From the NCBI RefSeq assembly GCF_003790525.1, contig NZ_CP033635.1: a stretch of DNA of 64,000 bases; one strand, given 5' to 3'. The notes beneath the pieces were generated by a model that worked only from the letters and a program-made list of their open reading frames with translations, had not been told where the DNA came from and searched no databases. Shown one piece after another: positions 3,273 through 6,484 of the stretch. The stretch comes from Escherichia coli. GTDB lineage: Bacteria > Pseudomonadota > Gammaproteobacteria > Enterobacterales > Enterobacteriaceae. A program made the translations under genes and the position numbers. Numbering within the stretch: position 1 is the stretch's first letter; every line of letters begins with the position of its first letter.

Positions 3273-3944
3273 GTGGATAAGGTTTTAGATTCAGCCCTCC
3301 TTTCTTCGGCAAATAAAAGAAAGGGTATCCTTGCTATTGGCGCACATCCTGACGATATAGAATTAGGCTGTGGCGCATCGCTTGCTCGTCTTGCGCAAAA
3401 AGGAATTTATATCGCAGCCGTGGTGATGACTACCGGCAACTCTGGCACAGATGGAATAATCGATCGCCATGAAGAATCGCGCAACGCCCTAAAGATATTA
3501 GGGTGCCACCAAACTATTCATCTTAATTTTGCTGACACCCGCGCTCATTTACAGCTCAATGATATGATTTCCGCCCTGGAAGACATCATTAAAAATCAAA
3601 TTCCTTCTGATGTTGAAATCATGCGGGTATATACCATGCATGATGCTGACCGCCATCAGGATCATCTTGCAGTCTATCAAGCCTCAATGGTTGCCTGCCG
3701 AACTATTCCACAAATTCTCGGCTACGAAACCCCAAGTACCTGGCTTTCATTTATGCCTCAGGTTTTTGAATCCGTTAAAGAAGAATATTTCACAGTCAAA
3801 CTTGCTGCATTAAAAAAACATAAAAGCCAGGAACGACGCGATTATATGCGTCATGATCGCCTGCGTGCAGTTGCACAATTTCGCGGGCAACAGGTCAATA
3901 GCGATCTGGGTGAAGGCTTTGTAATTCATAAAATGATTCTTTGA
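3273..3944 (+). CDS. yaiS: LmbE/PIG-L family putative N-acetylglucosaminyl deacetylase
   Basis: GAHPDDIELG motif near N-terminus and HDADRHQDH metal-site-like motif; GGAG 9 nt upstream of GTG at 3273; start uncertain. Confidence 0.7.
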   Translation: MDKVLDSALLSSANKRKGILAIGAHPDDIELGCGASLARLAQKGIYIAAVVMTTGNSGTDGIIDRHEESRNALKILGCHQTIHLNFADTRAHLQLNDMISALEDIIKNQIPSDVEIMRVYTMHDADRHQDHLAVYQASMVACRTIPQILGYETPSTWLSFMPQVFESVKEEYFTVKLAALKKHKSQERRDYMRHDRLRAVAQFRGQQVNSDLGEGFVIHKMIL

Positions 3945-3953
3945 GCAAATTGC

Positions 3954-5150
3954 ATGAAAACCTGGATATTTATCTGTATGGCCGTAGCAATATTGCTATG
4001 GTTCCTGAGTACGTTAAGGCGTAAGCCCAGCCAAAAAAAAGGCTGTATTGACGCCATTATACCTGCTTATAACGAAGGCCCGTGTCTGGCGCAGTCACTG
4101 GATAATCTGCTGCGTAACCCTTATTTTTGCCGGGTAATTTGCGTTAACGACGGCTCCACGGACAATACCGAAGCGGTCATGGCGGAAGTCAAACGCAAAT
4201 GGGGCGACCGCTTTATTGCCGTCACGCAAAAAAATACCGGTAAAGGTGGTGCGCTGATGAATGGCCTCAATTACGCCACCTGCGACCAGGTTTTTTTAAG
4301 TGATGCCGACACCTATGTTCCGCCCGATCAAGACGGAATGGGCTATATGCTGGCAGAAATAGAGCGCGGTGCTGATGCCGTAGGCGGCATTCCCTCTACT
4401 GCGTTGAAAGGCGCGGGTCTGTTACCGCACATCCGCGCGACCGTAAAGTTGCCGATGATTGTTATGAAGCGCACGCTACAGCAGCTCCTGGGCGGCGCAC
4501 CGTTTATTATCAGCGGTGCCTGCGGGATGTTCCGTACTGATGTATTGCGTAAGTTCGGTTTCTCTGATCGTACTAAAGTCGAAGACCTTGATCTCACCTG
4601 GACATTGGTGGCAAACGGCTATCGTATTCGGCAGGCGAATCGCTGCATCGTATACCCACAGGAATGCAACAGCCCGCGTGAGGAATGGCGTCGCTGGCGG
4701 CGTTGGATTGTGGGCTACGCGGTCTGTATGCGCCTGCATAAAAGACTTTTATTTAGCCGCTTCGGTATCTTCAGTATATTTCCTATGCTGTTGGTTGTGC
4801 TTTATGGCGTTGGGATTTATCTCACTACCTGGTTTAATGAATTCATCACCACCGGGCCGCATAGTGTGGTGTTGGCAATGTTTCCGCTTATCTGGGTCGG
4901 CGTAGTTTGTGTTATTGGTGCTTTTAGCGCCTGGTTTCATCGTTGCTGGTTGTTGGTGCCTTTAGCGCCGCTTTCCGTTGTGTATGTATTATTAGCTTAT
5001 GCCATCTGGATTATTTATGGACTTATTGCCTTTTTTACTGGACGCGAACCTCAGCGCGACAAACCCACCCGCTATTCCGCACTGGTGGAAGCGTCAACCG
5101 CTTATTCCCAACCTTCTGTCACAGGAACTGAAAAACTTTCTGAAGCTTAA
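3954..5150 (+). CDS. yaiP: membrane-embedded family-2 glycosyltransferase (synthase-like)
   Basis: 398 aa; N-terminal TM helix, IPAYNE, NDGSTD, SDADT (DxD), EDLD, REEWRRW (QxxRW-like) motifs, then C-terminal TM helices. Confidence 0.8.
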   Translation: MKTWIFICMAVAILLWFLSTLRRKPSQKKGCIDAIIPAYNEGPCLAQSLDNLLRNPYFCRVICVNDGSTDNTEAVMAEVKRKWGDRFIAVTQKNTGKGGALMNGLNYATCDQVFLSDADTYVPPDQDGMGYMLAEIERGADAVGGIPSTALKGAGLLPHIRATVKLPMIVMKRTLQQLLGGAPFIISGACGMFRTDVLRKFGFSDRTKVEDLDLTWTLVANGYRIRQANRCIVYPQECNSPREEWRRWRRWIVGYAVCMRLHKRLLFSRFGIFSIFPMLLVVLYGVGIYLTTWFNEFITTGPHSVVLAMFPLIWVGVVCVIGAFSAWFHRCWLLVPLAPLSVVYVLLAYAIWIIYGLIAFFTGREPQRDKPTRYSALVEASTAYSQPSVTGTEKLSEA

Positions 5151-5709
5151 TGTTAAAGAGAAAAATATTCAGATTGCAGACCAGGTAATTATTGATGAAA
5201 CTGCAGGTGAAGTTGTTATCGGCGCGAATACCCATATTTGTCACGGTGCCGTTATTCAGGGTCCGGTAGTGATTGGCGCAAACTGCCTGATAGGTAATTA
5301 TGCGTTTATTCGTCCTGGCACAATAATCAGCAATGGCGTAAAAATTGGTTTCGCCACCGAAATTAAAAATGCGGTTATTGAAGCGGAAGCAACGATTGGT
5401 CCGCAATGTTTTATTGCCGACTCGGTAGTCGCAAACCAGGCATATTTGGGCGCACAAGTACGTACCAGTAATCATCGTCTGGATGAACAGCCCGTGTCTG
5501 TTCGAACTCCAGAGGGAATTATCGCTACCGGATGCGATAAATTAGGTTGTTATATCGGACAGCGTTCACGCCTTGGCGTACAAGTTATTATTTTGCCTGG
5601 GCGAATTATTTCCCCGAACACGCAACTTGGCCCGCGCGTGATTGTAGAACGTAATTTACCTACCGGAACTTATTCACTCCGACAAGAACTTATCCGTACA
5701 GGAGATTAA
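4999..5709 (+). CDS. yaiX: hexapeptide-repeat (left-handed beta-helix) acyltransferase; true start uncertain
   Basis: Maximal ORF overlaps yaiP by 150 nt; repeated [LIV]G-x4 hexapeptides (VIGANTHI, VIGANCLI, ISNGVKIG); first canonical start after the yaiP stop is GTG at 5269. Confidence 0.55.
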   Translation: MPSGLFMDLLPFLLDANLSATNPPAIPHWWKRQPLIPNLLSQELKNFLKLNVKEKNIQIADQVIIDETAGEVVIGANTHICHGAVIQGPVVIGANCLIGNYAFIRPGTIISNGVKIGFATEIKNAVIEAEATIGPQCFIADSVVANQAYLGAQVRTSNHRLDEQPVSVRTPEGIIATGCDKLGCYIGQRSRLGVQVIILPGRIISPNTQLGPRVIVERNLPTGTYSLRQELIRTGD

Positions 5710-5710
5710 A

Positions 5711-6484
5711 ATGATAAAACGGACGTTATTAGCGGCGGCCATTTTTAGCACATTGCCCGCTTATGCCGGGTTAACTTCCATTACCGCGGGCTACGATTTT
5801 ACCGATTATTCTGGCGATCATGGCAATCGTAATTTAGCGTATGCTGAACTGGTGGCGAAAGTTGAAAACGCAACGCTGCTTTTTAATCTTTCCCAGGGGC
5901 GTCGTGATTATGAAACTGAACATTTCAATGCCACTCGCGGTCAGGGTGCGGTCTGGTATAAATGGAATAACTGGCTGACAACCCGAACGGGTATTGCCTT
6001 TGCGGATAATACGCCGGTCTTTGCCCGCCAGGATTTTCGTCAGGATATTAACCTGGCACTGTTGCCAAAAACGCTTTTCACGACCGGTTATCGCTACACT
6101 AAATATTACGATGATGTCGAAGTCGATGCCTGGCAAGGCGGCGTATCCCTCTATACTGGCCCGGTGATCTCCAGCTACCGCTATACCCATTATGACTCCA
6201 GCGATGCAGGTGGTAGTTACAGCAATATGATTTCCGTGCGTCTGAATGACCCGCGCGGCACTGGTTATACGCAACTATGGCTAAGCCGCGGAACAGGCGC
6301 TTACACCTATGACTGGACGCCAGAAACACGCTACGGCAGCATGAAGAGCGTCAGTCTGCAACGTATTCAACCGCTGACTGAGCAACTTAATCTCGGGCTG
6401 ACGGCAGGTAAAGTGTGGTACGACACCCCAACCGATGATTATAACGGTCTGCAACTTGCAGCCCATCTGACCTGGAAATTCTGA
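5711..6484 (+). CDS. yaiO: outer-membrane beta-barrel protein
   Basis: Signal peptide MIKRTLLAAAIFSTLPAYA, alternating aromatic-rich strands, C-terminal TWKF; starts 2 nt after yaiX stop. Confidence 0.8.
   Translation: MIKRTLLAAAIFSTLPAYAGLTSITAGYDFTDYSGDHGNRNLAYAELVAKVENATLLFNLSQGRRDYETEHFNATRGQGAVWYKWNNWLTTRTGIAFADNTPVFARQDFRQDINLALLPKTLFTTGYRYTKYYDDVEVDAWQGGVSLYTGPVISSYRYTHYDSSDAGGSYSNMISVRLNDPRGTGYTQLWLSRGTGAYTYDWTPETRYGSMKSVSLQRIQPLTEQLNLGLTAGKVWYDTPTDDYNGLQLAAHLTWKF

Follow-up and report, generated by a model that had tools for sequence, protein, structure and literature searches.

In the genome studied here, yaiX is an intact Escherichia coli gene under selection, whose translation most likely begins at the ATG at position 5017 to yield a 230 amino acid product, with the first 134 nucleotides also coding for the end of the upstream gene yaiP. 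Positions refer to the window, meaning the whole 64,000-nucleotide stretch of DNA that was analysed, and all genes and sites named lie on its plus strand. The best-supported coding sequence spans 5017-5709, with a start that we infer, and its predicted product is a left-handed beta-helix (LbH) acetyltransferase. The dual-coding overlap covers 5017-5150, where yaiX is read in the +1 frame relative to yaiP.

The existence of an overlap is already contained in the curated annotation of the K-12 gene (b4579) and in the literature (PMC13058169, PMC3531124). What is added here is comparative evidence that argues for a real overlap, indications that its start is 5017 and not 4999, and a proposed reconstruction of its growth from 14 to 134 nucleotides.

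Gene context and the K-12 alleles

The window is 100% identical to E. coli SMS-3-5 (NC_010498.1). Four tightly packed genes of the same orientation occupy positions 3273-6484. The first gene of this cassette, yaiS (3273-3944), is present in the open reading frame list as an intact frame for a 223 amino acid PIG-L family deacetylase, residues 19-221 of which are covered by a BshB1-like NCBIfam match. It is followed by yaiP (3954-5150), which encodes a 398 amino acid GT2 glycosyltransferase that resembles PgaC/IcaA and scores below the family cut-off. The yaiX frame comes next, and the last member is yaiO (5711-6484), which encodes an outer-membrane beta-barrel protein and starts 1 nucleotide past the yaiX stop codon with a good SD. 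The order deacetylase, GT2, acetyltransferase and barrel is kept across enteric loci. This conserved order, together with the report of clumping described below, suggests that a surface glycan is most likely produced and modified by the cassette, from a substrate that we can only infer.

The first-pass annotation of this sequence stated that yaiX is split by an IS element in K-12 and proposed an alignment with that strain, which bears out the statement. In both MG1655 and DH1, a 1331-bp IS2A is placed after window position 5298. The target site GTAAT (5294-5298), which forms a 5-bp duplication in K-12, is unoccupied in the window, so the frame is continuous here and does not have the IS2-interrupted yaiX' form. 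Otherwise the two are the same gene, with 8 nucleotide differences over the 300 nucleotides before the insertion and the 430 nucleotides after it, and the curated annotation of yaiX' (b4579) starts at the ATG equivalent to 5017, which is 134 nucleotides inside yaiP. The yaiS gene also differs, being full length here and interrupted by an amber codon in K-12, where a TAG at window position 3828 leaves 185 amino acids; the long form is kept in all enteric relatives. These two K-12 lesions, IS2 in yaiX and the amber codon in yaiS, bear on any effort to restore the pathway in that strain.

This isolate does retain the intact form of yaiX, as the first-pass annotation suggested, but the trait is not special to it. 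Among 5426 complete E. coli genomes, 4921 contain a match and 4446 carry the 1.2-kb stretch in one piece. An intact yaiX is what most E. coli genomes carry, and it is neither rare nor new. B2 strains that diverge by 3.5% over this stretch show a single change within the 134-nucleotide overlap.

Repair of the yaiX' pseudogene in K-12 causes clumping that requires YaiP (EcoGene 3.0, PMC3531124), and a 2026 paper contrasts the 71 amino acid K-12 fragment with the 236 amino acid variant of other strains (PMC13058169). Beyond the EcoGene mention of a meeting abstract and the 2026 overexpression paper, we found no ribosome-profiling or N-terminal evidence in the literature on yaiX and yaiP.

The yaiX reading frame and its annotated starts

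An in-frame TAG at 4993 precedes the yaiX frame, which stays open from 4996 until it ends in the TAA at 5707-5709. The first-pass annotation had correctly described a frame that is open from 4999, well inside yaiP (whose stop is at 5150), with in-frame ATG codons only at 4999 and 5017 and none after the yaiP stop. The translation contains no further Met, and the sole TTG of the frame is at 5026. Between the yaiP stop and the GTG at 5269, which is the first canonical start beyond that stop, the only possible starts are ATT and ATC codons. The overlap is indeed long, although its size is not the 150 nucleotides originally given: it measures 152 nucleotides from 4999 and 134 nucleotides from 5017.

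Openness of the frame is by itself weak evidence, because an open stretch of 146 codons occurs elsewhere in yaiP in the same frame as yaiX. When yaiP codons are shuffled among synonyms, only 3.8% of the shuffles leave the yaiX frame free of stops over the 44 or more codons that end at the yaiP stop. It is the comparative data that carry the case.

The same gene is present in public protein sets with at least six N-termini, which correspond to products of 236, 230, 197, 193, 174 and 146 amino acids. In this genome, RefSeq/PGAP places the start at a CTG (5128-5130) that gives 193 amino acids and is probably truncating, and in ST131 genomes with identical DNA it is placed at a CTG at 5116 (197 amino acids). 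The upstream in-frame ATG (4999-5001) gives the 236 amino acid reading and is probably not the start. The practical value of the present analysis lies in the annotation of the yaiX start. For expression or repair of yaiX, the gene would best be cloned from ATG 5017 or with the 3' end of yaiP included, and such a clone could serve studies of the clumping or exopolysaccharide phenotype and of the drug-tolerance effect reported for the K-12 fragment.

Predicted structure and N-terminus of YaiX

Hexapeptide repeats are detectable in YaiX with Pfam (Hexapep PF00132, 5.7e-9; LbH_EIF2B PF25084, 3.1e-10). An AlphaFold model built from a 74-sequence alignment has a mean pLDDT of 88 and a pTM of 0.85, and depicts a left-handed beta-helix with regular short strands, as expected for the LbH superfamily. 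In the PDB it matches ST0452, GlmU and LpxD best, followed by QdtC. YaiX is predicted to be a stand-alone LbH acetyltransferase. Residues 1-18 are modelled as disordered (pLDDT <50), and the chain is modelled confidently from approximately residue 21, in the segment that carries a WW motif, onward (pLDDT 82-98, with 82-90 also quoted from WW onward).

These features bear on the proposal that translation starts at GTG 5269, as chosen by some gene callers (P0028), to produce 146 amino acids. Such a product would lose the family-invariant residues D66, G70, G75, T78, C81, G88 and P89, together with the conserved helix turns that come first in the fold; the first-pass annotation also foresaw a loss of the first turns. 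Moreover, the site is structured (-13.4 kcal/mol). We regard this start as extremely improbable.

The WW motif, encoded by TGG TGG at 5083-5088, is conserved and marks what was probably the ancestral N-terminus. An MWW N-terminus is present in 44 of 74 homologues and aligns with H28-W29-W30 of the 236 amino acid frame (5080-5088). Residues 22-43 read HWWKRQPLIPNLLSQE.

Comparison of yaiP-yaiX junctions

Distant loci from Pseudomonas, Acinetobacter, sphingomonads and other Pseudomonadota (L011-13 and L017-19) reveal a compact version of the junction. In each, the yaiX homologue lies downstream of a homologous GT2 gene and has an ATG or GTG three nucleotides before the WW codons (WW-3). An SD is located about 8 nucleotides before this start, with the sequence GAGGT, AAGGT or AGAGGT in five loci and a weaker AGAGA in L018. 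This SD is made of the Arg codon of a '..PTRY..' segment of the GT2 protein, which is AGG or, in the Acinetobacter locus, AGA. The GT2 stop codon lies at WW+10, which creates an overlap of 14 nucleotides.

The 16 enteric-type loci, which derive from E. coli, E. whittamii, Citrobacter, Superficieibacter, Salmonella, Enterobacter and related contigs, are arranged differently. The codon before WW specifies H, Y, P, R, A or a similar residue, and there is no start at WW-3. The SD is lost as well, since the Arg codon is CGN instead of AGG. The YaiP stop lies at WW+16 to WW+82, and the YaiP tail is 2-24 residues longer (19 in E. coli).

An ATG at WW-66, which corresponds to 5017, is found in 16/16 of these loci (at -63 or -69 in two that have a one-codon indel), although this count does not represent 16 independent trials because the enteric loci are phylogenetically related. 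The ATG is built from the YaiP Tyr/His-Gly codons TAT/CAT GGA. Both frames are open across the relatives, and in 16/16 loci the open stretch of the yaiX frame begins at WW-66 or before it. Gene callers had picked a start other than the WW-66 ATG in at least nine of the 16, and its conservation is therefore not an ascertainment effect.

Additional ATG codons are present near WW in some enteric lineages, either 6-12 nucleotides before it (L009, L021, L022) or just after it (L008, L026, L027, L030), and so the yaiX start may differ between lineages. One possibility is that E. coli initiates at a non-canonical codon just before WW, for example the ATT at 5074, where some relatives have an ATG and where the PGAP fragment of the K-12 pseudogene begins. 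However, the sequence there is rich in GC, forms structure (-16.8 kcal/mol, 19th percentile) and has no SD, and such a start leaves the conserved ATG at 5017 and the invariant sequence block that follows it unexplained. A start at 5074 is therefore very unlikely.

Selection within the overlap

The yaiP codons of nine enteric loci were aligned, and synonymous constraint was measured as the fraction of pairs with the same amino acid that also share the same codon. This fraction is 0.65 over 5016-5087 versus a mean of approximately 0.40, and the maximum among 328 upstream segments of equal size is 0.516. The constraint sets in exactly at codon 5016, where the series reads TAT/CAT, GGA in all nine, ATT, GCC, TTT, TTT, ACT and GGA. 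Just before it, at 4998-5015, synonymous variation is at background level. The extra constraint begins at ATG 5017.

This boundary is relevant to a start at the first in-frame ATG, 4999, which KEGG-type annotations use and which would give 236 amino acids and a 152-nucleotide overlap. That ATG immediately follows the TAG at 4993, its surroundings are unstructured (-6.0 kcal/mol), and it is conserved in E. whittamii. Overexpression of the 236 amino acid construct also conferred weak ampicillin resistance (PMC13058169). However, ATG 4999 is found only in Escherichia. The yaiP Tyr codon at this position can be TAT or TAC and is followed by a variable codon. The ATG is missing from every non-Escherichia locus (Citrobacter, Superficieibacter, Salmonella, Enterobacter), where Tyr is encoded by TAC or a different codon comes next. 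There is also no SD (duplex +0.9). We consider this start quite unlikely, and the best reading of the comparison is that the conserved yaiX start is 5017. Because 4999 is restricted to Escherichia and falls upstream of the segment in which synonymous change is suppressed, the overlap would measure 134 nucleotides.

Mean pairwise nucleotide differences at yaiX codon positions 1/2/3, which are yaiP positions 2/3/1, divide the region into distinct parts. Where only yaiP is encoded (4867-5016), the values of 0.05/0.56/0.25 follow the yaiP-frame pattern. The ATG and the first eight yaiX codons (5017-5043, MDLLPFLLD) are nearly frozen at 0.03/0.03/0.14. The segment at 5044-5082 returns to a yaiP-only pattern (0.11/0.51/0.17), which identifies a yaiX linker that lacks yaiX-frame constraint. 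After WW, the yaiX-frame pattern takes over (5089-5127, 0.37/0.34/0.63); in 9 codons variation at the yaiX third position exceeds that at the second, and in 2 the reverse holds. Codon-position values are confined to sequence upstream of approximately 5160, beyond which indels in some loci disturb the ungapped offsets.

Other measures agree with a switch in frame. Amino acid identity over 5089-5148 is 0.51 in the yaiX frame versus 0.33 in the yaiP frame. The WW codons also require a final G in the yaiP Leu/Val/Met and Val codons that they overlie in the enteric alignment. Synonymous suppression and the change of periodicity after WW reveal selection on the yaiX frame beyond that on yaiP, as dual coding would produce. 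The freezing at WW and the yaiX-frame periodicity indicate that coding selection on yaiX extends upstream of the RefSeq CTG starts.

Those CTG codons represent another possible architecture, in which a non-canonical start near the end of yaiP, at 5128 (193 amino acids) or 5116 (197 amino acids), is used, possibly by re-initiation around the yaiP stop. They have the RefSeq annotation in their favour, Citrobacter loci carry GTG in the place of CTG 5128, and the region is unstructured (-4.4 kcal/mol) with an AGGA just upstream. However, WW and the 13 codons after it, all upstream of 5128, are under yaiX-frame selection, and residues 21-37 are modelled confidently as part of the fold. In addition, the AGGA is only 1 nucleotide from CTG 5128, and PGAP selects two different CTG codons for identical DNA. 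Initiation at CTG is very rare in E. coli. This arrangement is therefore unlikely, and the RefSeq starts at 5128 and 5116 probably truncate a conserved, structured segment of YaiX.

The nearly frozen block at 5017-5043 also includes a run of six T residues (5031-5036, within CCT TTT TTA at 5030-5038). Perhaps a +1 slip on this run, after which tRNA-Phe would re-pair perfectly, generates a YaiP-YaiX fusion. However, the run is broken in L005, L020, L021, L022 and L029, where yaiX is intact, and slippage would account neither for the conserved ATG nor for the constraint seen in the codons that precede the T residues. In distant relatives the start is clearly independent, and no natural GT2-LbH fusions occur among the 120 matches listed. 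Programmed frameshifting was rejected on the grounds that the slippery site is not conserved and is broken in five loci with an intact gene, and we judge a fusion of this kind to be highly improbable.

Probable initiation at ATG 5017 and proposed origin of the overlap

The preferred start at 5017 lies 134 nucleotides upstream of the yaiP stop and not within a few nucleotides of it. A termination-reinitiation junction is excluded by this distance, and initiation at 5017 would be internal and independent. The first-pass annotation was thus on firm ground in placing the start inside yaiP, whereas translational coupling of the classical kind does not fit. Also rejected as a coupling start was the TAATG at the yaiP stop (5148-5152), which is in the third frame, opens a 12 amino acid frame and is not conserved.

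The 60 nucleotides around 5017 are AU-rich and have a folding energy of -3.9 kcal/mol versus a mean of -12.8 kcal/mol, which places them in the least structured 2% of the region. The start of yaiP itself is similar (-2.5 kcal/mol). Counting against 5017 is its SD, which is only GGA (duplex -3.1 kcal/mol). RNA folding and anti-SD pairing fail to separate 5017 from 5128, as both sites are unstructured and have a weak SD.

Two other features of the 5017 site also count against it as the start. The site is run over by ribosomes that translate yaiP, and the invariant block at 5017-5043 could instead reflect an element that acts at the RNA level.

The arrangement of the loci suggests a path by which the overlap may have grown. 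The ancestral gene would have begun with M/V-WW, used an SD supplied by the AGG Arg codon of YaiP, and overlapped yaiP by 14 nucleotides. In the enteric lineage, the ancestral start codon and SD were presumably lost, and YaiP would have been read through into a longer tail. An ATG formed by the YaiP Tyr/His-Gly codons, 22 codons upstream, may then have taken over as the yaiX start, which would have added a disordered leader of approximately 20 residues to YaiX. Initiation would now occur within yaiP at an unstructured, AU-rich and SD-poor site, where ribosomes translating yaiP presumably modulate it.

A more specific form of this scenario can be offered only tentatively and may well prove incorrect. 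The 134-nucleotide dual-coding region might have been born in the Enterobacteriaceae, its SD-poor and traversed start might keep the YaiX:YaiP ratio low and dependent on yaiP, and the overprinted sequence might constitute a 21-residue leader tipped by MDLLPFLLD.

Relationship to known systems

The nearest solved structure to YaiX is the C-terminal LbH domain of Sulfolobus tokodaii ST0452, an archaeal-type GlmU (2ggo, 5z09). The profile match has an E value of 2e-34 over chain residues 241-399, with 34% identity and a TM-score of 0.71. This C-terminal domain is an amino-sugar-1-phosphate N-acetyltransferase and is the closest relative of YaiX. The best NCBIfam match of YaiX is correspondingly TIGR03992, yet it scores 130 bits versus a cut-off of 292. 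In contrast to archaeal-type GlmU, YaiX has no nucleotidyltransferase domain, carries the WW-containing segment at its N-terminus instead, and is encoded in a cassette with a deacetylase, a GT2 enzyme and a porin. Assignment as a bifunctional GlmU (TIGR03992, TIGR01173) was rejected, given the score of 130 versus 292 bits and the restriction of matched profile positions to 233-393.

The cassette has content analogous to that of pgaABCD-type loci, namely a GT2 synthase, a deacetylase and an outer-membrane barrel, and the YaiP-dependent clumping that follows yaiX repair (PMC3531124) is a further likeness. The best NCBIfam match of YaiP is PgaC/IcaA (E 8e-29), although its 101 bits are below the PgaC cut-off of 422. 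However, the deacetylase is of the PIG-L type and not of the PgaB type, YaiO is unrelated to PgaA, and the yai cassette includes an extra acetyltransferase.

Most annotated bacterial overlaps of more than 60 nucleotides are start-codon mispredictions. The yaiP/yaiX overlap differs from these in that a comparative signal, known here from sequence, supports a real one. It resembles overprinting overlaps, in which both frames are open and both are under purifying selection, and it shares with them a probable mode of growth by stop-codon loss and upstream start-codon migration. The locus may also serve as a clean and datable case of the growth of a long overlap by these two steps.

Truncation of yaiS in K-12

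The yaiS gene of SMS-3-5 is a full-length ORF of 223 amino acids (3273-3944). Comparison with K-12 reveals that the base corresponding to position 3828 is changed there from C to T, which converts a CAG codon to TAG and shortens YaiS to 185 amino acids. The C-terminal segment that is consequently missing from the K-12 form (..RDYM..RLRAVAQFRGQQ..EGFVIHKMIL) is retained in all the enteric relatives compared. Thus, because yaiS is truncated as well, the K-12 cassette carries two lesions. Despite the intact 223 amino acid ORF, RefSeq describes yaiS of SMS-3-5 as a partial pseudogene (3273-3683).

RefSeq also annotates a hypothetical protein of 39 amino acids on the minus strand (3810-3929), corresponding to the small protein YkiC of K-12. 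This ORF of SMS-3-5 lies antisense within the coding 3′ end of intact yaiS. YkiC appears to be intergenic in K-12 only because yaiS is truncated in that strain.

Annotated start sites of yaiX

The identical yaiX DNA is assigned different start sites in different E. coli genomes by the RefSeq pipeline PGAP, which places a noncanonical CTG start either at 5116 (197 amino acids) or at 5128 (193 amino acids). A third PGAP boundary, equivalent to 5074, is used for the N-terminal yaiX fragment of K-12. The yaiP stop codon forms the sequence TAATG (5148-5152), but its ATG belongs to the third frame and begins an ORF of only 12 codons. This TAATG is not present at the yaiP stop in the E. whittamii or Citrobacter loci compared.

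Related cassettes

There is also a diverged second copy of the entire yaiS-yaiP-yaiX-yaiO cassette, whose YaiX proteins exhibit about 60-64% identity. Both copies are found in the single genome of Citrobacter braakii ATCC 51113 (loci L006 and L008), and the second is also carried by some E. coli contigs and plasmids (locus L028 and YaiX homologues P0050 and P0051, some of them plasmid-borne). The matches of the initial BLAST search included 30 plasmid places. Approximately the same cassette type as L028 occurs on a contig (L010) of a MAG labelled Candidatus Ignatzschineria merdigallinarum, and the assignment of this contig to the MAG may be due to mis-binning of enterobacterial or plasmid DNA.

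In Enterobacter sp. PGRG2 (L022), YaiX has a C-terminal extension of approximately 30 residues, and the gene calls for yaiX and yaiO overlap by 86 nucleotides (L022:3641-3726). The yaiX-yaiO overlap would be the second long one in the same cassette.
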